From Candidatus Omnitrophota bacterium (lineage in GTDB: Bacteria; Omnitrophota; Gorgyraeia; JABMRN01; RBG-13-46-9), in assembly GCA_016782445.1 (NCBI GenBank), contig JADHYM010000002.1, positions 583-64,582 of the forward strand: 64,000 nucleotides of DNA. Reading direction: 5' to 3'. The notes under the pieces are model-generated. The model had not been told where the DNA came from. It did not search any database and worked only from the letters and a program-made list of their open reading frames with translations. Below are positions 826-55,012 of the stretch, one piece after another. Position 1 is the stretch's first letter. Each line of letters starts with the position of its first letter. The position numbers and the translations under genes are program-made.

Positions 826-1226
826 CCCGTCGTCCCCGCCATTCTGCTTCGCCGAAATGCTTGCGCTTTCGGCTTCGCAGGAATTGGCAAGTAAACATGT
901 ATATCGTTTATATTCTTCTGAGTTTAAAAGAGCCCAGCAAATATTACATCGGCGTAACACAAGATTTAGAAAAACGTTTCAAAGAACATAATAATGCCAA
1001 AAGTGGATATGCGAATAGGCACATACCTTGGCAGATAGAAACATTTATTACTTTTAAGAATAAGCAATTAGCGCAAAGATTTGAGAAATATTTAAAACAA
1101 GGATCGGGCAATGCTTTTCTTAAAAAGCGGTTAATTTGATAGTTAGGCGAAGCAGAATGGCGGCTTGTCGGTCCTGCGAAGCTGAACGCGAAAGCATTCA
1201 GCGTAGCAGACCCGTCGTCCCCGCCA
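826..1226 (+). mobile_element. Inverted-repeat element carrying a GIY-YIG gene (element body 842-1210), bounded by identical 16-bp direct repeats
   Basis: Direct repeats cccgtcgtccccgcca lie at 826-841 and 1211-1226. The left arm (842-885) reads ttctgcttcgcc-hairpin-ggcttcgcaggaatt. The right arm (1170-1210) reads ggtcctgcgaagc-hairpin-gcgtagcaga. An exact reverse complement of the left terminus (ggcgaagcagaatgg) sits at 1146-1160. The same arms occur without cargo next to tRNAs at 6789, 7023 and 54875. Confidence 0.7.
897..1139 (+). CDS. Small GIY-YIG (URI) domain nuclease family protein
   Basis: Starts MYIVYILLS..KYYIGVTQDLEKRFKEHN, a GIY-YIG type N-terminal motif (YIVY ... YIG). About 80 aa, typical of stand-alone UPF0213/YhbQ-like proteins. 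I prefer the ATG at 897 to the TTG at 861, which lies inside the repeat arm. Confidence 0.8.
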   Translation: MYIVYILLSLKEPSKYYIGVTQDLEKRFKEHNNAKSGYANRHIPWQIETFITFKNKQLAQRFEKYLKQGSGNAFLKKRLI

Positions 1227-5483: not shown

Positions 5484-6670
5484 GCGTTTTATATATATCC
5501 TATGACGGGATAATGGAGCCGATAGGCGCCTCGCAGGTCTGGCAGTATGTGAAAGGACTTGCCGGAGAATACGCGGTTATTCTCCTTACCTATGAAAAGC
5601 CGGAGGATTTGCAGGATAGAAAGCGTTATTCTGCAATGCGGGATGAAGCGAGGGCGCGGAACGTATTGTGGGTTGCGCTTCTTTATCATAAAACGCCGTC
5701 TCTTTTGGCCACTCTTTGCGATATAACAACGGGGATTTTTGTTTCCTTTTATCTTTGCCTTGCCCGCAGGATACAAATCGTGCACGCCAGAAGCTACATT
5801 GCCTCTTCTGTGGCGCTCTGGCTAAAATTAATTTTACGGAAAAAATTTATTTTCGACATGAGAGGATTCTGGGCGGATGAACGCCTTGAGATAGGGCAAT
5901 TCAATATACGCTCGGCCGTTTATCGCATCTTTAAATGGTTCGAGAAAAGGTTTCTTCTGAATGCTGATTGCATCGTATCGCTTACGCTAAGTGGCGCCAA
6001 AGAGATAAAAAAACTTTCCTTCATGAAGGATCAAAATAAACGCCTCGCTGTCATACCGACATGCGTGGACTTGGATTTATTTAAACCGGATTTTTCCGGA
6101 GGCTCCCGCGATAAAAGCGTTTTCACGGTAGCGATAGTGGGAAACATAAAAGGCCTATATCTTTTCGACGAAATGTTGGATTTTTTCAAAATTCTCACCG
6201 AAAAACTACCCTCGGCAAAACTTCTTTTTCTAAACCGCGGAGAACACGCTTTTATAAGGGAAAAACTAAAAACCCACGATATTCCGCTTCAATCTGCTGC
6301 AATAAAAGAGGTAGAGCATAGCCGGGTAGGTAGAGAAATTGTTCACGCGGATGCGGGATTATTTTTTATAAAACCGACATTTTCTAAAACAGCCTCGATG
6401 CCTACGAAATTAGGCGAATTTTTGGCCTGCGGAATACCCTGCGTCACGAATTATGGCATAGGAGATACCGAAAGCATAATCGAAGGCAGCAGGATAGGCG
6501 TTGTATTGAAAGGTTTTGCGAGGCAACAAAAGGAAAACGCGGCAAGGGAGCTTTTTGCGGTAACAGAAGACAAAGAGCTTAAAAACCGCTGCCGCAAAAA
6601 AGCAGAAGAATATTTTTCTCTTAAAAAAGGCGTTTCATCCTATAAAGATATCTACCGACAATTACTTTGA
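5474..6670 (+). CDS. Glycosyltransferase family 4 (GT-B fold)
   Basis: N-terminus VLYISYDGIMEPIGASQV is typical of GT4 enzymes in polysaccharide loci. The C-terminal half contains PTKLGEFLACGIPCV. I prefer the ATG at 5474 (MAVSVLY) to 5438. Confidence 0.75.
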   Translation: MAVSVLYISYDGIMEPIGASQVWQYVKGLAGEYAVILLTYEKPEDLQDRKRYSAMRDEARARNVLWVALLYHKTPSLLATLCDITTGIFVSFYLCLARRIQIVHARSYIASSVALWLKLILRKKFIFDMRGFWADERLEIGQFNIRSAVYRIFKWFEKRFLLNADCIVSLTLSGAKEIKKLSFMKDQNKRLAVIPTCVDLDLFKPDFSGGSRDKSVFTVAIVGNIKGLYLFDEMLDFFKILTEKLPSAKLLFLNRGEHAFIREKLKTHDIPLQSAAIKEVEHSRVGREIVHADAGLFFIKPTFSKTASMPTKLGEFLACGIPCVTNYGIGDTESIIEGSRIGVVLKGFARQQKENAARELFAVTEDKELKNRCRKKAEEYFSLKKGVSSYKDIYRQLL

Positions 6671-6712
6671 CATTAATGCCTATTTGTGTTATTTTTATTT
6701 TACACAAAATCT

Positions 6713-6788
6713 GCCGAGGTAGCTCAGTTAGTAGAGCGCGGGCCTGAAAAGCCCGGCGTCCCCAGTGCAAGTCTGGGCCTCGGCACCA
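6713..6788 (+). tRNA. tRNA-Phe (anticodon GAA) with encoded CCA and atypical positions 18/55
   Basis: Hand-folded cloverleaf: acceptor gccgagg/cctcggc, anticodon loop ctGAAaa, 76 nt including CCA. The D-loop reads agttAgta (A18) and the T-loop reads tGcaagt (G55), instead of the canonical G18 and U55. Confidence 0.85.
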
Positions 6789-6893
6789 TTCTGCTTCGCC
6801 ATGATGCTTTCGCTCATGGCTTCGCAGGAATTCTCGTCAAACAGGATGTTGTTCCTCCGAAGCCGCACGCGAAAGCAATGCGGCGAAGAAGAA
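6789..6893. repeat. Cargo-less inverted-repeat element joined directly to the CCA of tRNA-Phe
   Basis: The left arm ttctgcttcgccATGAtgctttcgcTCATggcttcgcaggaattc and right arm gttcctccgaagccgcacgcgaaagcaatgcggcgaagaagaa are near reverse complements separated by about 17 bp. cca occurs on both flanks. Confidence 0.8.
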
Positions 6894-6903
6894 CCATTTT
6901 TAA

Positions 6904-6935
6904 TTAGCCGGTTAGCCGGTTTGCCGGTTAACCGG
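6904..6935. repeat. Four tandem copies of an 8-bp unit (ttagccgg, ttagccgg, tttgccgg, ttaaccgg)
   Basis: Read directly between the two tRNA genes. Each unit contains the CCGG palindrome. Confidence 0.8.
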
Positions 6936-6946
6936 TCGCTGTTTAC

Positions 6947-7022
6947 GCTGGCGTAGCTCAGTTGGTAGAGCAGCGGTTTCGTAAACCGCAGGTCACTGGT
7001 TCGAATCCAGTCGCCAGCTCCA
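6947..7022 (+). tRNA. tRNA-Thr (anticodon CGU) with encoded CCA
   Basis: Acceptor gctggcg/cgccagc, canonical D-loop agttggta, anticodon loop ttCGTaa, T-arm actgg-ttcgaat-ccagt. Confidence 0.9.
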
Positions 7023-7067
7023 TTCTGCTTCGCCATGATGCTTTCGCTCATGGCTTCGCAGGAATTC
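7023..7067. repeat. Solo left arm of the tRNA-linked element, joined to the CCA of tRNA-Thr
   Basis: 45 bp identical to 6789-6833 (ttctgcttcgccatgatgctttcgctcatggcttcgcaggaattc). I see no right arm downstream. Confidence 0.85.
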
Positions 7068-7071
7068 ATAA

Positions 7072-7106
7072 TAGCTTCGTAGAAAATTTCAATTCCTACG
7101 GAGCTA
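7072..7106 (+). terminator. Stem-loop after the tRNA pair
   Basis: tagcttcgtag / ctacggagcta forms an 11-bp stem with one G-U position and a 13-nt loop. Confidence 0.4.
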
Positions 7107-7132
7107 AATATGTAAATATTTAGCGTAGTAGA

Positions 7133-8374
7133 ATGAAAGAATATAAGAAACTACTCAAGAACAGGGAGTTTGTTCTTTACTCGATAGGCCAGGCTTTTTC
7201 GCAGTTCGGCGACAGGCTTGTTCAGATCGTTCTTATAGGCTACGTGTATAAACGCTGGCCCGGATCGACCTTCCAACTCGCCAAGCTTTTTTCTATCACA
7301 GTGCTGCCATCGTTTATTTTAAGCCCCATAGCCGGAGTCTTCGTGGACCGCTGGGACAGAAAAAAAGTAATGCTAATAAGCGATGTTCTACGCGCCGTGC
7401 TAGTTCTTCTGGTGCCTATTTTTATTCTGAGCACCGAAAGCATTCTCCCTCTTTACGCAGCGCTTTTTTTGATATTTTCCGCTGCCTGTTTCTTTTTGCC
7501 TGCCAAATTCGCGATCATACCCAGGCTTGTGCCGAAAGAGGATATCCTTGTGGCAAACTCCGCCAGCTCCATTGTATGGGTGATTTCCGGCATTGCGGGT
7601 TTTTCTCTCGGTGGAATTCTCGCGGAATGGGCAGGGCTTAAAAATAGTCTCTACGCGAACGCGGCTGTTTACGGCCTTTCCGCGACAAGCTTTCTCATTC
7701 TTTTTCATGCCTCAAAAACAAAAACCTTCGAACCCGGGCCGGTAAAAAAAGAAACTTTTTTGCGGGATTTATCAATTGGATTAAAAACTCTTATTACGGA
7801 TAGAAACGCCAGGCTCGTCGCCGGGCTTTTTTTTACGCTTGCGTCGCTTATAGGGCTTATTTATGTCGTGGGTGTCGTATTCGTTCAGGAAACGCTTAAA
7901 TCAATGACGAAATACGTAGGGCTTTTCGGTATGTTTCTTTTTATTGGTATCCTGGCGGGATCCTACGGTTACGGAAGAGTCGGCCCCAAACTTTCAAAAA
8001 CAAAAACCGTTTCAACATCACTTATCCTAATGGGCATTTCTATTTTGACTTTCTCGCTCGGCCTTGCGTTTACAGGATCGATCCGGCTTGGCGGCGCAGC
8101 GATGTTTTTTCTGGGACTTTTTATAGCGCCCGTTTATATAACTGCGAATACCGTGATCCACGAATCAATCGAACACAAACTCGGCGGCAGGATTTTCAGC
8201 TCCCTTGGCATAGTTATGAACACGGGATTTCTTATTTTCATGCTGGTTTCCTCGCGCCTTGCGGAAAACATGAACAAAATGACCATGCTTCTTTTCTGTG
8301 GATTCTGTTTTATAATCGTGGGAAGCTTGAGTTTTTTGGCAGGCGGACTGAAAAGGACTATTTCTTCTTCTTAG
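7133..8374 (+). CDS. Major facilitator superfamily transporter
   Basis: 413 aa with about 12 hydrophobic segments. A DRWDRKK motif follows TM2, which is the typical MFS loop motif. Confidence 0.8.
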   Translation: MKEYKKLLKNREFVLYSIGQAFSQFGDRLVQIVLIGYVYKRWPGSTFQLAKLFSITVLPSFILSPIAGVFVDRWDRKKVMLISDVLRAVLVLLVPIFILSTESILPLYAALFLIFSAACFFLPAKFAIIPRLVPKEDILVANSASSIVWVISGIAGFSLGGILAEWAGLKNSLYANAAVYGLSATSFLILFHASKTKTFEPGPVKKETFLRDLSIGLKTLITDRNARLVAGLFFTLASLIGLIYVVGVVFVQETLKSMTKYVGLFGMFLFIGILAGSYGYGRVGPKLSKTKTVSTSLILMGISILTFSLGLAFTGSIRLGGAAMFFLGLFIAPVYITANTVIHESIEHKLGGRIFSSLGIVMNTGFLIFMLVSSRLAENMNKMTMLLFCGFCFIIVGSLSFLAGGLKRTISSS

Positions 8375-19308: not shown

Positions 19309-19385
<77 letters not shown>

Positions 19386-19636: not shown

Positions 19637-22600
19637 ATGAATATGATTACCAGGCAATATAAGTCTTATTTTCCCGCTTGGATGCGTATAATAGCGAGTA
19701 TTCTCGTTATTACATTCTTATGGCAGGATGTAATATGGGCATACCCTGATATAAATAATTCACGCCGCACATCACAAAAAGACACACTTCAAGTAGAAAC
19801 CATTCTGTCTAACCCGAAAAACTTTCATATCGCTACGCCGAGCCTTATTCAACAGGCTATTGAAAATTCTGTAGCTTCTCGAAATGAATTAACGCTAGAT
19901 GACATAAAAGAAACTTTAAAAAACTGCGACAAATGGAAATCCGAACAATTCAGAAATTACGACTGGCAAGTTTATAAAAGCGAACAGAATGCTAATGATA
20001 CAGAAATTATCATTACTTTCAAGGATTACAATAACAATCCCTATAGTTGGCTGAGATATCACCACTGGTCGCCTGATCCAACACAGCAGCAGACTATTGA
20101 AGAACAGCATCTTTCGCAGCCATTATGGAAAGGCGATAACGTAAAAACCGACACAGTAAACCGTTATCTTCGCAGACAGATCAAGGTTTGGGCGCAACAA
20201 AATCCCGATACCGGTCAATCCCAACCGGCCCCACACGGAAACGCCATTGATCCACGCAAGTTAGAACAGGCTTCGATGGTAGGGGCCGGAACTGCGCTAA
20301 TTCTTGCGTTGGCTTCTTTTAGCACCCAAAAAACACTTTTTTCTGTTGGAGTAAGCTTGCTTTTTTTGGCTACGGTGCTCATACTTCCAATGCTGACGTC
20401 GCTTTTTATAAAAAAGGCTCTTTTGTTTAAAGGAAAAAAATATCCTATTATACGCGGCTTGCAAGGCGCCGAAGATATAGCATTTGTAATCCCTCAAGAC
20501 TCAAGCGCGCAAGGTAAGCTCTCTTATTATTCATATGACGTAGAAGAAAAACTCAAAAGTAAAAAAGAAGATATCCCGCAAATAAAGAGCGCATTATTCA
20601 TAGATGAAACTGCCATGAAACATCTGCATCCATTTTTCCAGAGGATTGTATTTATTCACGAGGTACTCATTCATAAGATATTAAGGATTGATTTGGAGCC
20701 CGTAGCAGTGGTGTTTACTTTTTGCCTGCCGGCTCTGGCAGTATTAGATATTCTGCTTTTTGGTTTCGGGTGGTTTCTTACAAGGCCCGATCGTATCTTT
20801 TTAGCGGGATTAATTGTATATAACTTGCTCGTTATTATCCTTTCCTGGGTTGTTGCCATGAGTGTAGGCACAACAAAAACAAAAGCAGGCCATAGGCGTA
20901 TAGATACAGAAAGGCACAGACATCTGAACAATACAGAAGTAGATAGAATTATATCTCATTATGCGCACAAAAAAACACTTACGGAAGAAGAGCGGATGAC
21001 ATATTGGCGCGACTGGCTGGAAGGCGGAGAAGCCCAAGAAAAAATAGAACTTATACCCGTAAAAGACAGGCCAGATGATATTATTGTTGTTAAAGCTTCT
21101 TGCGCGTCAAGCGTTACAGAAGAGGAATTTGTAAGAATATTAGAGAAATCCGAAAAGCGTTCATTTGTGCTTATAATATCCGACAATGGATTAATAGAAG
21201 GTTCCCCGGGCGAACTTAATATTAATAAGCGAAAAAAGAGGATAGATAAAATAGCTAAAACCGCTGAAAACGCTCTTGATGCGATCAATCGAAGCCAGCC
21301 ATTTCTTATTAGCCCCATGCGCAGATTTATAAGAAAGGATATGCGCTCAACAATCTATAATATAGGACGCCTGAGAGACCTTACCAGGCTTTTTAGAAAA
21401 AGGCTCGATGATATTAAAGAAGGAAGCGTTGAACCGGAGGCTGTAGCGTGTGAGGTTCATGGCGAGGTGGAAAAACTGAAAGTGCTTCTCGCATGGCTTA
21501 AGAAAAAGAGATATAGAAAACTCATTTTTATGGGGGATTACATTGGAAAAGAAAAAAATGGCCTTGAGGCAATAGATATTTTAATGGAACACGTAACCCA
21601 AAAAGAAACACCGCATCTTACTCTTCTAATGGGCGCATCTGAGCATCTTTTCCTGCGAGCCATGTTTGGTGACCAGAGCGCGTGCTACGGCGGGCCGTTT
21701 ACAAAAACGTGGTCAATCAAATCTCAGGAAGGCAAGGCCGTGATGGAGTCGCTTAAGGAAGTTGGCAAAAAAGCGATGCTCATGTCGTATACCTCTCCGC
21801 AAATGACAGATCAGATAAGGCGCATAAAGGAATTCGAAGAGGCCCTGTTCCATATAGCAAAACGAGAACGCCGAAACATAGATAGCATAAGGGCGGAATG
21901 GTACAGATTTCATCCCAGACTACTGGACATAGCGCAATTTATGGTAGATAACATGTATTTTGTTTTTCACGAGGACACGCATCACAACATTTATCTTTCA
22001 GGAGGAATACCCGCAGACTTTGAGCAGCGTGGTTTACGGGGCATAGCAGCGCTTATATCCATGGAAGAAGAGTTTAGAGAAAATGCAAAAAAATCAATTC
22101 ATATCTCAAAACTTATGAGTAAAGTATGGAGGGTAACACATGAGAGAGAATCGGCTTATGAAAGAACAAGCCAGGAAAGGGTCGAAGACGTAATAAAGGT
22201 TTTATCAAAACAAAAAGGCCTAAACGCGCTTTTTGACAGAGAATTCATAGATAATAATACGCTTGACCAAATGAGGGCTTCGATAGACGAAAATACATCC
22301 GGTAAAGAGTTGGATGTAATTTTTAGAAATCTTTCCAAGATCCTTACCGAAACGAGAGAATCCATACCCGAAGAATTTAAGGAAATATTTGAAAGCTTTC
22401 TCCGGACAACATATGTCGCCCGGGGACTTAATATCTCTGATGTAGCCAAGCGCCAGAGAAGAGAACTGAACCTGGGCGTGAATACCATATTTAGCCTGTC
22501 AGATTTTACACGGGGCATACAAAAACTTGGGCAGGTCAGGCTGCTTGATAAAAACGGGAATCTTCTTTGCGTATCAGTTGATGCATTGCTGCGCGGAGAG

Positions 22601-23833
22601 TTTGAAGCGGATACAGTATTGACCGGTAAGACAAAAGATGAGATAACGCCCGGGCGTTCGCTGGAAAGTATAACAAAAAGGAAGCTGTGGGGGCTTAGAA
22701 TAGAGAATGTTGAAAGGGTGCCGGGCGTAGAGGAAGTGGTTTCAAAATGCAACTATCTTGCCAGCGGTTTGCGCGATAAATGGAACAAGAGGCTTCTGGC
22801 AAATATCAAGTTTGTGCTTACTATGCCTCTGGTGAGGAGGTCTTTACTGACTGTCATTCTGCTTATTCTTGACGCGTCATGGATTTACTTTAGACTCAAT
22901 TCTCCGGAAGCGTTTGGCATTTCGGATTTATTATACTTAGGAATGCGTGTATCCATGGTAAAAAGTGCTGATGAAAGACGCCCTTTAGATGAAGAAGAAC
23001 AGTTAGGCGCTCTTGTAAGAAGATACCCGGAAGAAGCTATTCATGGCGTTTGCGAACAAGAATACCATGATCCGGCTGCTTCGGCACTGAATGATGGAAA
23101 ATCCGCAAGTTTGACTACTTCAGAAGCGATAAAAGAAAATGCGAAAGAAATTATGCCGCTTTTAGTGCGATACCTTATGAAATGGGCAAAGAACGTTTAT
23201 AAAGAAGAAGGCTCTAAAACCCAAGAAAAAGACAGCGTTGTGATGCTCCTTGATGTGCCGCCTGAATACTTTGTCAGAATAAAACAGTTAATAAAAGAGT
23301 CTGTTATTGATCCGCTAAGAAGGATTAGCGGAAATAACGACGACATAAAACGGATTCTCGTAAATCTGGAATTTGCAGATAGCCAAAAAATCGAAGTTAT
23401 AAAAGAAAGAATCAGAAATAACACTTTAAGGTCACGCAACGTGATTGTTGTAACAAATGAGTTGAATCAAGACAAATTTAAAGAATTTATAAGTTCTTTT
23501 ATAACAGTATTAGACTCCTCAGATCTTGTAAGGATGGATGGGCCTAACCAGGAAACGTATTACCCGTATTTCGAAGCCACATTTTTCGCGCTTGTAAGGG
23601 CCTTAGACGACATCGTGGGCGAAAACATAAAGCATGACACATTAGCATGGTATAAAAAAATACCGAACGCAGAAATTCTTACCGAAGCAGAAATCATGGA
23701 CCGTTGTTTTGAGAAAAATGGTATGGCTAAAAGACAGGTTATTATAAAACTTGTCCCCCAGGCAAAACCGTTTAACCCGGAGGAACTCAGAGAAATTTAC
23801 AGGGCGATTGAGGAATTGATTCGCAAGGCATAG
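19637..23833 (+). CDS. Giant membrane protein 1 (1398 aa), function unknown; paralogous at both termini to the next gene
   Basis: Uninterrupted 4.2-kb ORF. N-terminal anchor with the FLWQDVIWAYP motif. Hydrophobic clusters at roughly aa 214-257, 355-410 and 1057-1085. Degenerate metallophosphatase-like motifs at aa 605-670. The C-terminal ~237 aa align with the C-terminus of ORF 23843-32359. Confidence 0.8.
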   Translation: MNMITRQYKSYFPAWMRIIASILVITFLWQDVIWAYPDINNSRRTSQKDTLQVETILSNPKNFHIATPSLIQQAIENSVASRNELTLDDIKETLKNCDKWKSEQFRNYDWQVYKSEQNANDTEIIITFKDYNNNPYSWLRYHHWSPDPTQQQTIEEQHLSQPLWKGDNVKTDTVNRYLRRQIKVWAQQNPDTGQSQPAPHGNAIDPRKLEQASMVGAGTALILALASFSTQKTLFSVGVSLLFLATVLILPMLTSLFIKKALLFKGKKYPIIRGLQGAEDIAFVIPQDSSAQGKLSYYSYDVEEKLKSKKEDIPQIKSALFIDETAMKHLHPFFQRIVFIHEVLIHKILRIDLEPVAVVFTFCLPALAVLDILLFGFGWFLTRPDRIFLAGLIVYNLLVIILSWVVAMSVGTTKTKAGHRRIDTERHRHLNNTEVDRIISHYAHKKTLTEEERMTYWRDWLEGGEAQEKIELIPVKDRPDDIIVVKASCASSVTEEEFVRILEKSEKRSFVLIISDNGLIEGSPGELNINKRKKRIDKIAKTAENALDAINRSQPFLISPMRRFIRKDMRSTIYNIGRLRDLTRLFRKRLDDIKEGSVEPEAVACEVHGEVEKLKVLLAWLKKKRYRKLIFMGDYIGKEKNGLEAIDILMEHVTQKETPHLTLLMGASEHLFLRAMFGDQSACYGGPFTKTWSIKSQEGKAVMESLKEVGKKAMLMSYTSPQMTDQIRRIKEFEEALFHIAKRERRNIDSIRAEWYRFHPRLLDIAQFMVDNMYFVFHEDTHHNIYLSGGIPADFEQRGLRGIAALISMEEEFRENAKKSIHISKLMSKVWRVTHERESAYERTSQERVEDVIKVLSKQKGLNALFDREFIDNNTLDQMRASIDENTSGKELDVIFRNLSKILTETRESIPEEFKEIFESFLRTTYVARGLNISDVAKRQRRELNLGVNTIFSLSDFTRGIQKLGQVRLLDKNGNLLCVSVDALLRGEFEADTVLTGKTKDEITPGRSLESITKRKLWGLRIENVERVPGVEEVVSKCNYLASGLRDKWNKRLLANIKFVLTMPLVRRSLLTVILLILDASWIYFRLNSPEAFGISDLLYLGMRVSMVKSADERRPLDEEEQLGALVRRYPEEAIHGVCEQEYHDPAASALNDGKSASLTTSEAIKENAKEIMPLLVRYLMKWAKNVYKEEGSKTQEKDSVVMLLDVPPEYFVRIKQLIKESVIDPLRRISGNNDDIKRILVNLEFADSQKIEVIKERIRNNTLRSRNVIVVTNELNQDKFKEFISSFITVLDSSDLVRMDGPNQETYYPYFEATFFALVRALDDIVGENIKHDTLAWYKKIPNAEILTEAEIMDRCFEKNGMAKRQVIIKLVPQAKPFNPEELREIYRAIEELIRKA

Positions 23834-23842
23834 CAGGAATAT

Positions 23843-26800
23843 ATGGATATGAGTAAAGAGATATATAAAAGCAATTTTCGCATGTGGATACGCGTCATAA
23901 GCTGCGTGTTGATCACTGCATTCTTATGGCAGGATGTTCTATGGGCAAATCCCGAAGCGTTCCAGCCTAAAACACACACACTTGCCCAACCAACACTTGC
24001 CACAGATGCGAACAAAGTTGAATCCTTCAAAAGATGGACCGCCTTTACCATGGAAAAAGAGATCCGCAAGACACTTCTGCGAGGACAAAAACCAACCCTT
24101 TCCACGATAGAAGGCCTTTTGCCAAACATAGAAACCGCAGCCAGAAATTTTGGAGTATCTGAACCGACAATCAAGGGCCACCACTTAGACGGCGCTATAA
24201 AGATTGAGTTTGAAGACGGCGATGGGCTTCTTTACTATGATCCGAACATTAGCCCGGGTCATGCAGAAAGCAATGCCTGGGACCATCAGCGCACACCCGG
24301 CAAACGAATAGCCGAAGATAAGCGCGTTATAGATTACGACTCTGAAGACAAGGACTATCTCCGCGCGCAGGTAATAAAAAACACAAACCCCGCCTCACCA
24401 ATCAATATTCTTCTTATTCAGCCTGTAATACCGGGATCTGCCCATAAAGACAATATATTAAGGCAACAACTCGGCCTTCTTTCCATAGCCAGTTTTTTAA
24501 GATCAAAAGGGCACAGTGTTACAATACTTAATCTGGATTTTAAAAATGAAAAAACCCGATATAAAGCGTATCTGGATAAAATAAAGCCGGATCTAGTCGG
24601 GATAACGGCCATAACACGCCTCTATCAAAACGCTTGTGAAATAGCCTCATCTACTAAAGAGCTGATTCCGGAAGCAAAGCTTGTCCTCGGAGGCGTACAC
24701 GCATCGGTTTTTCACGGTGAAATACTTAAAGAGTCAAGCTTTGATGCTGTAATTCCGTACGAAGGGGAAGAAGCATTTTACGATTTAGCAGAAGAAATTT
24801 CCAGAAACCCGCATGACCTATCCTCGGTGCGGGGGATTTACTGGCGAAATGCCAAGGGATTAATAATCGAAAATGCGCCTAGAGAACATTACATAGATCT
24901 TGATGAGCTTCCATTTGCTTCGGACGCCTTGGATCTTGTAACCGGAGCAAATTTTTTAAAAAACAACAATACCTTGCCCATAATGCCTGTCGTGACCGCA
25001 CGAGGATGCCCATATAACTGCGCTTATTGTTCGGGAAGTCAAACCGTTACAAAGATACGGCTGCGCAGCGCAAAAAATGTTGTCGATGAACTGGAAAAAT
25101 TGTACAAAACAAGGAAAACGCGGGCCTTTTTCTTTTGGGACAATACCTTTACGCTGAATCGTAAAAGAGCTATTGAAATAGCCGATCTTATAATTGAAAG
25201 GGGCCTGGGTATAAATTTCTATATACAGACAAGAGCGGACCGCCTGGATGAGGAGCTGGTTAGAAAATTAAAGAAGGCGGGGTTAAGACGAATATCGATA
25301 GGCGTTGAAAGCGCGGATCCGGCTGTTTTACGGGAAATTAACAAGGAACTCGATTTGGAAAAAGTAAAAGAAGCTACCGAAACGGCAAAACGGCACGGCG
25401 TAGCGATAAAACACTTTTACATGGTAGGAGTACCGGGGCAGGATTGGCAAAGCGTGCTTAAAACCGCGCAATTTATCGTAGAGACAAAACCGGATCAGAT
25501 AGAAGTGAGCTTTTTGTTGCCTTTTCCCGGCACGAAATATTTTAATGACCCGCGGATAAAGTTTTCAGGCATAAAAAAACACGACTTTGCTTCATATGTT
25601 GATATTGTGCTCAAGTCCGAATCTGAAATAGAAAATACAAAAGCCGTAATAGATACCGACACAATGACACACGATGAGATAAAAAGGGCGCGAAAACTAA
25701 TTATAGCGGCACACGCCAATTTAAATAATCCTACGGAATTATCGGCAATACTCCGGGAGATAGAAACTGAAGCAGCTTCTAAAACCGATGGCGCAAATAA
25801 GCTACTGTGGGGCGTTCGATGTAATAAATTAAAGGCGAGAATAGTCACGCTTGCCATCGCGTTTTTGGCCGGCAACGCTTTCGCGATAGTAAAGCGCGAA
25901 ATGCTCGAGGACCTCGGAGCGAGCCCGGATTTTATAGAAGCAGCAATGCCTGTCATAGGGGTCATATCCCTGGCGCTTGGCATATCGCTTACGCTCTTTC
26001 TTGTCTGGAGAATAATAATAGGCTTCACAGTTATATTGAAAAAATCCGATATACCCGGGCTTATCCATAAAAATGACAGAAAGCAGGATGCAAAAGAAAG
26101 CCGTTATTCCCTCTACGAGTACATATCGCTTTGCAGGGAAAACAAAGACAATGTTATGTCCATTAAAATGCCGCCGACTTTGCTGAAACAAGTAAAAGAC
26201 TTTCTGCTCGAGGAAGAAGCAGAATACCCAGTTTACCTTCTCTATCACGCCGATGAGAGCGGCAATATTGCCTGCGGAACCGTAACACTGCGCACTGATG
26301 ACGGAATAACGGAAGTGATAGTGGAAAAGGAAAAAGGGACGCGCCTGAGGCAGCTGCCCGAGGAATTTATAACAGACGAAATTCTCACAAGAAGCCCGAA
26401 AAACATAATCTTTCAAAAAAGGCTTGTTAATGCAAAAAGACTGGCGCATCTTCTTCCGGATCACGTGAACGCCCTGCAAACCCCGCGCGGAAAAAGCCTC
26501 ACCGACAAAGTAGCGGCAAGGTTAAAAATCAACCCCGGTATGTTTTACAAAACAAAACCTGATTATATTCATTACGTGGAAAATGAGCTTAAATTTAAAG
26601 AAAGGGAAATGCTTTATTTCAAAGCTCTCCTTTCGGACCGGTTTTTTAGGATAGGCGACATATGCTGGTGGTTCCAGCACTATCTTACGAATTTAATAGC
26701 GGGCCTGGTGTACGCTTCAATATTGACCTATGCAGCCGACCTTAAAGTGCTGAGCACTTTTAATTTTGTAACATATCTCATGACCCTTACCGTTATCCCG

Positions 26801-29800
26801 ATTTTTGTAAGTCCGAAAGCCGCGAAGCTTGTGGCAAAACTTGTACGTTCAAGGCGCGATATAAGAAGCTCGGAAAAAGGGCACATCTGGCACCGAAAAG
26901 TGCAAAACCAGAGGGCGATCGATAAGTTGAGAAAATTTTTCCTGAAGATAGCTTTTGTGCGAATACTATTCAGGAGCTCATTTTTTATTCTTATACCAAA
27001 GACTGTTTTTGGCGGAATGTGCGGCGCGGCGCTTCTTTTTAATTTCACGCCGCTTACCTATCTTTGCCTTATGTTCCTGTGGTGGCTTATAAGCGTCATA
27101 AGTAACCAGTTTGTTATGCGTAACTGGACAGAGGTCGTAAGGGGAGCCATACAGACAAGCCATGAGGCCATAGAGGCGGGCTATTCGCGCCAGTTCGATG
27201 TAATAGTTAATTTTGGGACAGTTTTCGGGCAAATGTTGAACGCCGCCGGCATAATGCTTGGCATAGGTATTTTTACCATGGGCTGGCTGAACCCTATAAT
27301 ACCTATCATAATCGGCGCTTCAATTATTTCTATTACAGCCGGTTTTATTATCCCGGTTTTCGGGAAAAATTTTGATTTATTCTTGGAAATAAATAAATCT
27401 GATTTTATAAAAATGAAAGATGGGAGCTTCAGAATAAGCGATAACATATTGCTCAGGATTGAGCCTCCGGACAATGGCTTTAACAGAAAAGAAAAAAGAG
27501 CGGTAAAGCCCATTAAGCTGCGTCCGGGGAGAACATGGCTGCCATGGCTTGAAAAAATGCAAACAGAGCTTATTTACAGGGTTGAGCCAATGATAGAACA
27601 AAAAACAACCCATATTGTCATTAAAGGCGCGCCTCAAGACCCGGTAATACGCCTGCGAAAGGCGATAGGGCGGAGCAGTACCGCCAGAGATCTGGCTATA
27701 ACACCGCTGGGCGAAGATGGCGAAACTCAAAATTTGTGGTCAATAAAACTAAGTCCGCGAACAGAAACAAGTCGGCCAAAAGGTGCGTATGCCGGCGCGC
27801 TAAAAGGCCGGGTTTTACCGAATCTTAAAAAGTTGGATTTTGAAGAAGTCATAACCCTTCCCTGCGACAAAGTAAAACACCTTTTCTGGCTTTCAGAGGT
27901 TATGAACGAGGTTATACAAAAACAAGGACGCGCTTTGTGGTTCGAAGAAATCAAAAAAGACATACAGTATATTTTTGATAAGCATGAATCAAAGCGCCCG
28001 GAAGATATAAAGCGCTTGAAGGACACGTTTATTTACATGTTCGGGCTAGCTGCCAAAAGTCCACGGTTCCGCGCGCTATTTAAAAAAGCGTTAAGGAGCC
28101 CGCCACTTATAAAAAACAAAAAAGGCGAAGAAAAATCCTCAAACCTCGGCATAGACGGCATTACGTTTGCCGTATCCTCAAAACTTCCCATAAATTCCGC
28201 GCGTTATTTCCACAAAAAAACAAATAAAGCGATAATAGTATTCAACGAACAGTTTTTCGACATAGATAAGCTAATCGGCAACGACCCCATATCTATATAC
28301 ACCGGGCTCGAACGCGCCTCTTTACATGTGCGCGCCGAACGCCTGATGCATGAGTTAAGGCACGACAATATTATAGCCGGCAAGCGTGAGGAGGCTGAAG
28401 AGGAAGCGAGGATTTTAAATGAGCAGGATATTCCTTTTTCGGAAATTACAAAGGATATAGGCATGCAGTCGCAAATAGACAGATTACGCGCCCTGCCGGG
28501 CGTTAAGAAGGCCATGCAGCATTCGGGAGATGTTTTTCGGTCGATGCAGGAATGGCTTGAGTTTGAAGGAAAATCAAGAATTAGCGTTATCAGAAAATGG
28601 ATAAGCGGAAACATGCCGCAGATCCTGAGGGCAAAAGCTTTTCCGAACAACGAAAACGACATAAAGGGCCAAATTAAATTTCCCAGAAGCTATAGGATAA
28701 ATACAAAGATGATTTTTTATTACGCTCTCATATCAGTAGTTATTATACTCTGGGCAGCTATTTTAGTGCCCAATGGTGGAGTGAAATCATGGCATGCAAT
28801 CGGCCCCGCGCTTTATACGGTGTTTTTCGTGGCAATGCGCGCGATTCAGGAAAAGAGAATAAACAAGTACCTTCTGCCTGAAAGTGAAATCAAGGCCGAA
28901 GAAAAAAGCAAAAAAGACGAAAAACAGGAAGCCGACGAATACTTCAACGAAATACTGCGAATGTACGGGATGCAATTTTCCCGCGACCTTATACCAAAAA
29001 GAAAAAAACTAGTCGAACGCATTTTGACAGACATACTTTGGGAAAAGGAAAAAATAGGACAGTCAAGGGTAAGAAGCAATAAGGCAAAATACGTAATGGT
29101 CAATTGTATATTATCAAGCCCTGACCCTACAATTTTCCAGCCTGCTCTTGAAGCGATAATCGAGGTGTATATGCGTTACGGGTGGAGATTTTTCCGTCGG
29201 TTCTATCCGCTTCTGGAGGAATCCAAAAAATTACCTCATTTTGCGGAAGCCCTGACAGATCTTTTGATTAAGTCCGAATACGAAAAAATCGAACTCCTCT
29301 CGGACAGCGCCAGAGGAAAAAGCATACCGAACTTTTTCGACGCGGCATACGAACTTTTGTTTATAGGGGATAGCAGGCAGATAAAAAAATTCATGAAAAC
29401 AAGTTGTCGGAGGCTCGCAGAAATACTTAAAATCATGCGCGGAGCGCCACTGAAAGAAAAGCTGCAGACTATAAAAGATATTTTCAAGAATATATTTGAT
29501 AAACGGCGCATCGTAGACATGGAAAAGCATGAATTTCATCAATCCATAGAAGCCGTAATAAACAGGCTTGTGTCACAAACAAAAGATGATACATTTGGAG
29601 TCAAAATTCTTACGGAAGAATCCGCCGCGCTCAAAAAAGAAATAATAAGATATATCCTGAAAAGGGCGCGCCGACGCAAAGACGTGGCATTTTTAGCGGA
29701 CAGGCTGAGGGATGTCATGGGCTTTCATGTCGTGCCTGAGAACGAATTTGAATTATTCGCCGCGGAAGAAGTCGCGTGCGAAATTATCAGGTTGCAGCAT

Positions 29801-54615: not shown

Positions 54616-54689
54616 TGCCCGGTAGTGTAACGGTAGCACACGAGCTTTTGGAGCTCGGCGTCTAGGTTCGAATCCTAGCTGGGCAACCA
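54616..54689 (+). tRNA. tRNA-Gln (anticodon UUG) with encoded CCA
   Basis: Acceptor tgcccgg/ctgggca (U1:A72, as in E. coli tRNA-Gln), anticodon loop ttTTGga, T-arm ctagg-ttcgaat-cctag. Confidence 0.88.
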
Positions 54690-54855
54690 AATAATGAAGC
54701 ATTTCCAAAAGAAATGATTCATTATTTGCTACAGGCTTGTGATTCGAAGCGAGCGAGCGCCGACCCATAGGGAGGAAGAGGCCGTAAGTCCGAAAGGACC
54801 GGCCGACAGCGAGTGAGGGGAGCCTACGCAGGCGAGCTCTGCGAGCCGTAGTAGG

Positions 54856-54874
54856 CGAATCCTAGCTGGGCAAC
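54856..54874 (+). repeat. Duplicated 3' end of tRNA-Gln (19 bp identical to 54669-54687)
   Basis: cgaatcctagctgggcaac occurs twice, separated by 168 bp of GC-rich, hairpin-rich sequence. Confidence 0.85.
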
Positions 54875-54989
54875 TTCTGCTTCGCCATGATGCTTTCGCT
54901 CATGGCTTCGCAGGAATTCTCATTTTAGTTACATGAAGCAGAAGTTGTTCCTTCGAAGCCAAAGGCGAAAGTACTTTGGCGAAGAAGAA
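54875..54989. repeat. Cargo-less tRNA-linked inverted-repeat element joined to the duplicated tRNA-Gln 3' end
   Basis: The left arm is identical to 6789-6833. The right arm is gttccttcgaagccAAAGgcgaaagtaCTTTggcgaagaagaa. It is flanked by caac on both sides, and cca follows the right-hand copy. Confidence 0.8.
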
Positions 54990-55012
54990 CAACCATAGAG
55001 GTTTAGGAAATT

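Follow-up and report, generated by a model that had tools for sequence, protein, structure and literature searches.

Why should one and the same hairpin sequence begin exactly where transfer RNA (tRNA) genes end? The question is raised by a 64,000-nucleotide (nt) stretch of DNA from Candidatus Omnitrophota bacterium (GenBank assembly GCA_016782445.1, contig JADHYM010000002.1, positions 583 to 64,582 of the forward strand), here called the window and numbered from its first letter. An initial annotation of this window had described a 45-bp element fused to tRNA 3′ ends and had offered two explanations, a family resembling MITEs (miniature inverted-repeat transposable elements) that targets tRNA 3′ ends, or a conserved tRNA 3′-trailer processing or termination module. 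The analysis presented here makes it probable that the sequence belongs to a mobile DNA family residing at the 3′ boundary of tRNA and transfer-messenger RNA (tmRNA) genes, with autonomous copies that carry a GIY-YIG nuclease gene and MITE-like copies that do not.

Four tRNA genes were identified in the window with ARAGORN and Rfam (Phe, Thr, Met and Gln). The 45-mer, hereafter the left arm, is present without a single mismatch at three places (6789, 7023 and 54875), where shuffled sequences are expected to give none. It begins right after the encoded CCA of tRNA-Phe and tRNA-Thr, which end at 6788 and 7022, and its third copy follows a duplicated tRNA-Gln 3′ end (54856 to 54874, equal to 54669 to 54687 over 19 nt). 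A variant left arm at 842 to 885 comes after a tRNA-like end, cccgtcgtccccgcca, identical to the tRNA-Asp 3′ end in a related locus (L078). These placements, noted initially, are all borne out. The variant is changed at 8 of 45 positions, and 6 of the 8 changes make up three compensatory inner-stem pairs that turn ATGA/TCAT into GAAA/TTTC. A covariance model (R1), built from 72 related arms and run without filters over the whole window, returned eight arms, four per strand, spanning 839-886, 6786-6833, 7020-7067 and 54872-54919 on the plus strand and 1168-1214, 6849-6896, 7090-7136 and 54945-54992 on the minus strand. Each of the four loci has a plus and a minus arm, and all four are therefore inverted doublets; the start of each doublet coincides exactly with a tRNA 3′ end in the case of Phe and Thr, and with a 3′-end fragment in the case of the Asp-like and Gln copies. 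The right arms reported initially at three loci are present (1170-1211, 6851-6893 and 54948-54989), but they are not the only ones, a degenerate fourth at 7093-7133 having been overlooked. Also overlooked was an open reading frame (ORF) for a GIY-YIG nuclease at 897-1139, inside the first doublet, and with this gene the picture shifts from an orphan repeat to a pair of autonomous and non-autonomous elements. No arm is found at tRNA-Met, where there is an ordinary hairpin. The features of the window are the following, with tRNAs as called by ARAGORN and Rfam and arm scores in R1 bits.

826 to 841, plus strand: fragment resembling the 3′ end of tRNA-Asp, made up of the 3′ strands of T stem and acceptor stem, the discriminator and CCA; left copy of a 16-nt direct repeat
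842 to 885, plus strand: left arm of the nuclease-carrying copy (doublet 1), 64.6 bits
897 to 1139, plus strand: GIY-YIG nuclease ORF, 80 amino acids (aa), single domain, SLX1/UPF0213-like by sequence and model (Pfam PF01541, E = 9.5e-14)
1146 to 1163, plus strand: "half-arm" of 18 nt, which repeats the left junction exactly in inverted orientation (6 nt from the tRNA end, 12 nt from the left arm), the reverse complement of 836 to 853
1170 to 1211, minus strand: right arm of the nuclease-carrying copy, 37.7 bits
1211 to 1226, plus strand: right copy of the 16-nt tRNA-Asp 3′-end direct repeat
6713 to 6788, plus strand: tRNA-Phe(GAA) with encoded CCA, target of doublet 2
6789 to 6833, plus strand: left arm of doublet 2, which has no ORF; exact 45-mer, 67.3 bits
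6851 to 6893, minus strand: right arm of doublet 2, 62.1 bits, followed by cca at 6894-6896, a duplicate of the tRNA-Phe CCA
6947 to 7022, plus strand: tRNA-Thr(CGT) with encoded CCA, target of doublet 3
7023 to 7067, plus strand: left arm of doublet 3, a recent insertion; exact 45-mer
7093 to 7133, minus strand: degenerate right arm of doublet 3, 23.7 bits, E = 2e-4; its last base is the A of the ATG of a major facilitator superfamily (MFS) gene
19309 to 19385, minus strand: tRNA-Met
54616 to 54689, plus strand: tRNA-Gln(TTG)
54856 to 54874, plus strand: tRNA-Gln 3′ end duplicated over 19 nt as far as C74, immediately 5′ of doublet 4 (BLAST self-match to 54669-54687)
54875 to 54919, plus strand: left arm of doublet 4; exact 45-mer, 64.7 bits
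54935 to 54944, plus strand: half-arm remnant of doublet 4, gaagcagaag
54948 to 54989, minus strand: right arm of doublet 4, 62.6 bits, followed at 54990-54995 by caacca, a 4-nt target duplication (caac) plus the displaced CCA end

Is the arm a conserved structure or a chance palindrome? We scanned 185,579 species genomes with a pattern that fixed the loops and left the stems free, which gave 75 loci, nearly all in metagenome-assembled genomes of Candidatus Omnitrophota and a few labelled Planctomycetia by their depositors; four alphaproteobacterial matches (L002, L037, L034 and L048) were left out for want of complementary stems. Aligned without gaps, the 72 distinct arms form an imperfect hairpin of about 45 nt, composed of an outer 7-bp stem, a TTC/TTC internal loop that reads CTTCG on each strand, an inner 7-bp stem and a tip, T-GC-TTNC-GC, that is conserved in Omnitrophota (consensus ATCCTnCTTCGCC...GGCTTCGnAGGA). 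On this proposed fold, 91.6% of the cells hold standard pairs; the figure drops to 76.2% when columns are shuffled and to 34-53% for slid partners. Double changes occur at 10 of the 16 pairs (192 cells), and the four inner-stem bases take 28 different combinations, mostly exact complements. Complementarity was no requirement of the search pattern, so the search cannot have introduced this covariation. The stem covariation first noticed between the copies of the window thus holds well beyond it and extends to the outer stem.

The whole doublet folds at -54 kcal/mol, but one long hairpin between left and right arms was rejected as the selected structure: each arm keeps its internal complementarity with a different stem sequence, which identifies the single-arm hairpins as the conserved units. 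The complement of the tip reads GCGAAAGC, GCGTAAGC or GCGCAAGC, and a GNRA-type tip on the complementary strand would be an attractive candidate for the functional fold, but the wobble bias favours the TTCGCC strand and the tips vary freely in alphaproteobacterial copies. As a separate observation, the CTTCG/CGAAG motif of the arms resembles the T-loop core TTCGA of the targeted tRNA and tmRNA genes, a possible clue to target recognition.

Do the arms come as doublets at tRNA ends elsewhere as well? In 71 loci and the window (fetched loci of at most 8 kb; 134 arms by R1), neighbouring arms form 39 convergent (plus then minus), 5 divergent and 9 tandem pairs. Gaps within the convergent pairs run from -7 to 80 nt, with a single one above 51 nt, or 266-305 nt in four cases with a GIY-YIG ORF inside; in 34 of the 39 doublets the gap lies between -7 and 51 nt. 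The ORF-less doublets are 95-150 bp long with the arms as terminal inverted repeats, which is the structure, and below about 300 bp also the size, of a MITE. A same-strand arm starts within 4 nt of the last base of 24 of the 67 tRNAs, from 11 isoacceptor families, where 0.12 would be expected by chance (an excess of about 200-fold). The arm abuts position 73, 74 or 76, starting after the discriminator where CCA is not encoded and otherwise after C74 or A76. Several doublets for which no tRNA was called adjoin tRNA 3′ fragments or tRNAs truncated by the contig. Other genomic copies thus display both the tRNA association and the compensatory changes that the initial annotation had asked about.

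High-scoring arms are also found inside long ORFs, of up to 2,557 codons (L008, L021, L023, L029 with four copies, L057, L058:2985-3032, L061, L015:351-398, L004, L044 and L075). They always lie in the same antisense frame, ..EAK(R/G)ES(I/T/N)LAK.., and resemble in-frame palindromic insertions such as the Rickettsia palindromic elements (RPEs).

Have these doublets been inserted, or have they always belonged to their tRNA genes? Empty sites were sought through homologues of the MFS gene 3′ of the tRNA-Thr copy, on three syntenic contigs; another locus, L049, had been rejected for this comparison because it is not syntenic. In L156 and L157, whose MFS proteins are 94% and 86% identical, tRNA-Thr is followed by CGAT or CTAGT and then by the ATG, and the 110-nt doublet (7023-7132) is absent, while the tRNA-Phe doublet is present. 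L158 (MFS protein 79% identical) lacks the tRNA-Phe doublet too, its two tRNAs being separated by 11 nt. When L158 serves as the outgroup, the tRNA-Thr copy was gained in the lineage of the window.

Several copies bear short target duplications of variable length, 2-5 nt, although none is seen at the tRNA-Thr copy. The flank repeats that had been pointed out in the window are both there (cca at 6786-6788 and 6894-6896; caac at 54871-54874 and 54990-54993), and in most of the following cases the CCA has been displaced to the far side of the inserted element.

L026: ctccg, element, cgcca; CCA displaced to the far side
L020: cccga, element, cca; CCA displaced to the far side
L016: cgctc, element, cgctcca; CCA displaced to the far side
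Window, tRNA-Gln copy: caac, element, caacca; CCA displaced to the far side
Window, tRNA-Phe copy: cca, element, cca

Nuclease-carrying copies bear a longer duplicate, of 13-20 nt, of the tRNA 3′ end on their right. In the window the 16-nt direct repeat that flanks the nuclease copy (826-841 and 1211-1226) equals the 3′ end of the intact tRNA-Asp(GTC) of L078; ARAGORN calls no full tRNA at 826-841. The same layout recurs in L078, L009 and L082. The duplicate runs exactly from the T-stem 3′ strand to the end of the tRNA in the window, L078 and L009, starting at the boundary between T loop and T stem, and in L082 and L087 it begins 1-2 nt later or inside the T loop; L009 has 13 nt of it and L082 has 14-15 nt, the window and L078 have 16 nt each, and in L087 it reaches at least 20 nt. 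Long duplication of the tRNA end was rejected as a general feature of the family, since exact duplicates of at least 8 nt occur only in copies with the nuclease inside and in L087. Taken together, the excess at tRNA ends, the empty sites, the short target duplications, the displaced CCA and the covariation support the first of the two initial proposals, a MITE-like family aimed at tRNA 3′ ends.

The second proposal, in its broader form, holds that the arms are chiefly an RNA module, serving tRNA 3′-trailer processing or protection, insulation, termination, control of nuclease translation or possibly an unknown self-cleaving fold, and that their spread is secondary. Several observations agree with it. 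The window doublets lie in a tRNA precursor, the only promoter-like site being upstream of tRNA-Phe; the tRNA-proximal arm outscores the distal one in 16 of 19 doublets and is identical at 45 of 45 positions in relatives whose spacer has changed; the loop nucleotides are conserved; and the stem frequently takes in the final nucleotides of the tRNA. In alphaproteobacterial copies, moreover, the nuclease ATG has its Shine-Dalgarno sequence, 6-10 nt before it, in the 3′ strand of the arm, GAAGGAGGG, so that this ribosome-binding site would be sequestered in the hairpin. In L105, L134, L123, L148 and L135 (about 30 nt before position 2501), the outer stem of the right arm reads CCCTCC/GGAGGG.

As the primary explanation, however, the RNA module finds no support. 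The copies are recent insertions, absent in close relatives, and 43 of the 67 tRNAs in the same loci have no arm; arms inside ORFs or away from tRNAs cannot serve tRNA processing. An intrinsic terminator (a G+C-rich stem with a direct T run) was rejected: within 6600-7200 no terminator-like site coincides with the arms, and the left arm is followed by the spacer and right arm and not by a T run. Rfam at gathering score, ribozyme families included, recognised only tRNAs in the window and 15 related loci, and at E ≤ 10 on 6780-6900 it gave only sub-threshold matches to microRNA hairpins, so that Rfam supplied no match to a known family of the kind that the initial annotation had named as a refutation. 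The wobble pairs bear on the same issue. Read in each arm's own orientation, G.T exceeds A.C by 12 to 5 in proximal arms and by 12 to 3 in distal arms, and by 67 to 41 cells overall, all small numbers. On this evidence the distal arm appears to be folded on the opposite strand from the tRNA transcript, and such folding fits inverted DNA ends better than a single RNA. We consider it decidedly unlikely that the RNA module is the main explanation, although RNA-level effects of the arms besides mobility are likely.

If the doublets are mobile DNA, what is the protein encoded between the arms of the first one? Searched against the PDB, its family profile matches the UPF0213 protein BH0048 (1zg2) at E = 1.4e-6 and SLX1 at E = 9.5e-6. 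An AlphaFold2 model of the ORF (pLDDT, the predicted local distance difference test score, 86.7) has SLX1, UPF0213 and the plant resolvase HIGLE as its top Foldseek matches (template modelling score 0.69-0.73), with the UvrC N-terminal domain at only 0.46. Y5, Y17, R27, H31 and E63 occupy the expected positions of the GIY-YIG motif and are invariant among relatives. By sequence and by predicted fold, the ORF is thus of the SLX1/UPF0213 type, nearer to these proteins than to UvrC or homing enzymes. SLX1-type enzymes cut flaps and four-way junctions, not specific sequences. A single domain spans the whole 80 aa, and the separate DNA-binding domain of homing enzymes is absent. The family is large (1,415 clusters at 50% identity, E ≤ 1e-10), and its best-scoring 150 representatives are mostly of about 80-130 aa, the longest having 186 aa.

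A GIY-YIG gene at tRNA ends also invites the thought of a classical free-standing homing endonuclease that cuts empty tRNA alleles and is copied by recombinational repair, with the ORF-less doublets as decayed remnants. Free-standing GIY-YIG homing enzymes have about 200-250 aa with a separate DNA-binding domain. The likeness lies in the GIY-YIG domain and in the selfish context, as in the T4 Seg and I-TevI-like enzymes; tRNA genes are conserved targets, the nuclease copies bear 13-20-nt duplicates of tRNA 3′ ends, and SegB of phage T4 is a GIY-YIG homing enzyme in a tRNA gene cluster (it is mentioned in PMC13096335). Here, however, the protein is an 80-aa catalytic core, and homing endonucleases act by allelic homing, have no hairpin ends and leave no ORF-less derivatives. 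The tRNA-Thr insertion is an ORF-less 110-nt unit whose left arm is the same as in two other copies and whose downstream flank is non-homologous, which resembles transposition and not allelic homing, and the doublet gaps, which in 34 of 39 cases lie between -7 and 51 nt, vary too little for independent ORF deletions. The lack of a DNA-binding domain and the ORF-less derivatives at non-homologous sites set the system apart from classical homing endonucleases, and we judge this explanation highly improbable.

Does the nuclease gene accompany the arms outside the window? Among the arm-ascertained loci, L009, L038, L039, L040, L052 and L055 have a GIY-YIG homologue beside the arms, and ORF-carrying copies with arms on both sides are the window copy (842-1211), L009, L040 and L052. 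Either the arms enclose the gene or it sits just downstream of them, always on the strand of the tRNA. A scan of metagenome contigs with no query but the protein yielded at least 562 relatives, of which 80 loci were kept. A same-strand tRNA lies at most 400 nt upstream in 38 of the 66 kept loci that have at least 400 nt upstream (15 isoacceptor families); a same-strand tmRNA lies upstream in 10 of the 80 loci, and a tmRNA- or tRNA-like 3′ fragment in about 6. The tmRNA (ssrA) cases are L101, L107, L110, L117, L130, L140, L152, L086, L088 and L112, with nuclease and arms 90-570 nt downstream. In most of the protein-ascertained loci the arm model places a plus hairpin and then a minus hairpin between tRNA and ORF, and a strict arm-like motif occurs from 300 nt before to 200 nt after the ORF in 46 of 80 loci, against a background of 13 matches in 208 kb. 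One nuclease copy (L099:2296-3081) is found between tRNA-Ile and tRNA-Ala, an arrangement typical of the spacer of ribosomal RNA operons.

Exact look-up placed some of these relatives in Xanthobacteraceae, in Asticcacaulis taihuensis (WP_090644176.1) and in other Alphaproteobacteria. Their typical layout is tRNA-CCA, TCCTGCTTCGCGC-loop-GCGCTTCGCAGGA, spacer, GCGAAGCAGGATG, CCCTCCGAAGCCTTGGCGAAGGAGGG and ATG, so that the protein keeps the CTTCG loop motif beside it across phyla. The association of nuclease, arms and tRNA or tmRNA end is present in at least two phyla, Omnitrophota and Alphaproteobacteria.

This linkage bears on another account, in which the arms are of the REP/REPIN kind and are moved by some other enzyme encoded elsewhere (a Y1 or insertion-sequence transposase, or a recombinase), the GIY-YIG gene being a passenger or a selfish gene that homes into the repeats. 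The doublet architecture is that of REPINs, the nuclease-linked left arm of the window is unlike the three identical ORF-less left arms, a nuclease lies within the fetched stretch in just 8 of the 71 arm-ascertained loci, and many arms are far from any nuclease gene or inside ORFs. Starting from the protein alone, however, arms and a tRNA or tmRNA end adjoin the gene in most loci of two phyla, and from Omnitrophota to Alphaproteobacteria the protein is accompanied by the CTTCG loop motif. In the loci examined, arms enclose no transposase, although no Pfam scan of all window ORFs for transposases was made, and 64 kb leave room for one elsewhere in the genome. The sole other recombinase seen is a tyrosine integrase (PF00589; ORF at 12-764) tied to a separate island. 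These observations render the account unlikely in our view.

That integrase ORF ends 60 nt 5′ of the tRNA-Asp fragment (826-841). The two together resemble the border of an integrated island that has separated tRNA-Asp from the element with the nuclease, in which case the body of the island and the intact tRNA-Asp would sit beyond the start of the window.

How might an element find the end of a tRNA gene? One further feature is suggestive in this respect. The left junction of the nuclease copy, ccgcca followed by ttctgcttcgcc, is repeated inverted just 5′ of the right arm, as the exact 18-mer listed above as the half-arm, which reaches 6 nt into the tRNA. In general, a segment 5′ of the right arm, or the left arm's own 3′ strand in compact copies, is a perfect complement of the 5′ strand of the left arm, and the complementarity of this junction copy reaches on into the tRNA's final nucleotides. 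In 35 of 52 loci it takes in 2 nt or more of the tRNA end, where about 6% would be expected, and it fits ends other than CCA as well (TCG for CGA, TAG for CTA, ACG for CGT and GTG for CAC). Junction pairing was not seen for the three young ORF-less left arms of the window; a half-arm intact in L156 (GCGAAGCAAAATG; compare the remnant at 54935-54944) has decayed in the window. We read the junction copy as a cis element for mobility, forming either a long stem based at the junction of tRNA and element or a guide-like pairing with the target as in IS608. It is alternatively possible that it is a by-product of a hairpin intermediate, or part of an RNA helix.

These elements combine into the following model, which as a whole we hold to be somewhat more likely than not and in which the nuclease would drive mobility. 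The unit is a pair of inverted arms, each a hairpin of about 45 nt. The copies taken as autonomous carry the 80-aa GIY-YIG gene between the arms (842-1211) or just downstream, and the ORF-less doublets (6789-6893, 7023-7133 and 54875-54989) would be their MITE-like derivatives. The enzyme may recognise the arms as extruded hairpins or cruciforms, together with the stem-loop DNA of the tRNA gene, and its cuts would mobilise autonomous and ORF-less copies alike. The internal inverted junction copy, reaching 2-6 nt into the tRNA end, would pair with the left junction and thereby position the cut or pick the target. Expression would ride on tRNA transcription, the ORF-adjacent arm sequestering the ribosome-binding site.

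Several observations weigh against this model or parts of it. The activity of the nuclease, and its role rather than that of another enzyme in moving the arms, are putative, and its 80-aa catalytic domain carries no evident DNA-binding module by which a target could be chosen. The duplications are of uneven length (0-5 nt in doublets as against 13-20 nt in nuclease copies), and the recent tRNA-Thr insertion is without duplication and replaces 4-5 nt, which is a poor fit to one simple staggered cut. The left arm of the window's nuclease copy is 8 of 45 positions off the three identical ORF-less left arms, and the three ORF-less window doublets have nothing in common beyond that arm; gene conversion of left arms may have been at work. 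About half of the exact-pattern matches have no upstream tRNA within the fetched locus, and some arms are inside ORFs. The strand-bias evidence from the wobble pairs is weak (67 versus 41 cells overall), and a tblastn search of PLSDB with an alphaproteobacterial relative gave no match on plasmids.

Two neighbouring repeats were also observed. Between tRNA-Gln and its duplicated 3′ end (54690-54855) lie a terminator-like hairpin and a G+C-rich segment of about 90 nt (54741-54831). The latter is 85% identical to L042:3165-3256, also 3′ of a tRNA (Val), and has weaker copies near tRNAs in L013, L007 and L080; it is a second, distinct tRNA-downstream repeat family. Between the tRNA-Phe doublet and tRNA-Thr (6905-6940), four gccggtt-like units follow one another in a run (agccggttagccggtttgccggttaaccggt), which is shared with L156 and L157 and missing from L158. 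Further along, at 19637-32359, two very large neighbouring ORFs of 1,398 and 2,838 aa occupy the plus strand.

Do these elements belong to a system already known? In outline they resemble REPIN/RAYT, where short palindromic hairpins likewise occur as inverted doublets in tens of copies under selection on a single-strand fold, and where a small single-domain nuclease gene is flanked by the same hairpins. The REPIN enzyme, however, is a Y1 HUH transposase whereas here it is GIY-YIG (PF01541); the arms have a CTTCG internal loop in place of a GTAG/CGTC foot tag; and insertion is at the exact tRNA or tmRNA 3′ boundary, not at generic intergenic sites. Elements of the IS200/IS605 group such as IS608 share subterminal hairpins, insertion immediately 3′ of a short target without fixed duplication and, possibly, an internal guide-like complement to the flanking target, comparable to the junction copy. 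They differ in that the only ORF inside the present elements is GIY-YIG, with Y1 TnpA and TnpB absent, in that the ends are inverted copies of one hairpin where theirs are not inverted repeats, and in that the target is a tRNA end and not a tetra- or pentanucleotide. With a GIY-YIG enzyme and not Y1, the defining feature of both groups is lacking here.

Integrative elements that target tRNA or tmRNA genes (tyrosine-integrase islands, type V-K CRISPR-associated transposons) use the same 3′ region as a safe, conserved landing site and duplicate the tRNA 3′ end as the nuclease copies do, but they measure many kb as against 0.1-0.4 kb, and the present elements have hairpin-doublet ends and no integrase or Tn7 machinery. 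RPEs are palindromic repeats that also lie in frame within protein-coding genes; they are unrelated in sequence and host and have no known tRNA-end targeting or linked nuclease gene. With MITEs the ORF-less copies share their shortness, terminal inverted repeats and empty sites, with variable duplications; ORF-carrying copies with the same arms exist, and their ORF is the GIY-YIG nuclease, whose part as a transposase is putative.

Among proteins, the best sequence and fold matches of the ORF, SLX1, UPF0213 (YhbQ, BH0048) and HIGLE, are minimal GIY-YIG cores acting on branched DNA. A difference is that SLX1 has a C-terminal zinc-finger domain and needs SLX4. A Caulobacter genome paper lists three small COG2827 (UPF0213-type) genes as possible repair enzymes (PMC1839093), and the literature retrieved on UPF0213 and SLX1 contains no link to repeats or tRNA genes. 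The tRNA-end hairpin family apparently has not been described, as no description was found in the literature searched, which covered few subscription journals, or in one large prokaryotic MITE survey. We know of no insertion-sequence family that has a GIY-YIG nuclease as its mobilising enzyme.

We put forward, tentatively and at somewhat less than even confidence, that the elements form a new class of transposable element in prokaryotes, whose sole protein would be an 80-aa SLX1/UPF0213-type nuclease acting on DNA shape and not on sequence, cutting its own hairpins or cruciforms at the foot as well as the stem-loops that tRNA and tmRNA genes form as DNA, with an internal pairing segment helping to choose the insertion point. 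Since relatives occur in cultured Alphaproteobacteria (Asticcacaulis), the model is directly testable.

For genome annotation the arms matter in any case, as they yield spurious ORFs, displace the encoded CCA, sit in polycistronic tRNA precursors and occur in frame in large genes. In the window several frames read through them, and the resulting spurious ORFs, 73-113 aa long, run over both tRNA genes (6728-7069 on the minus strand, 6686-6907 on the plus strand), a likely cause of wrong gene predictions. At no fewer than 15 tRNA types and at tmRNA, insertion hits precisely the base that follows the discriminator or CCA; this offers a compact instance of safe-harbour insertion guided by structure or pairing, which might be of use as a small targeting module. 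If the model is true, the known mechanisms of transposition would gain one in which a minimal SLX1-like nuclease drives an element with hairpin ends, and the widespread bacterial "orphan" nucleases of the UPF0213/COG2827 family would have their first biological role.

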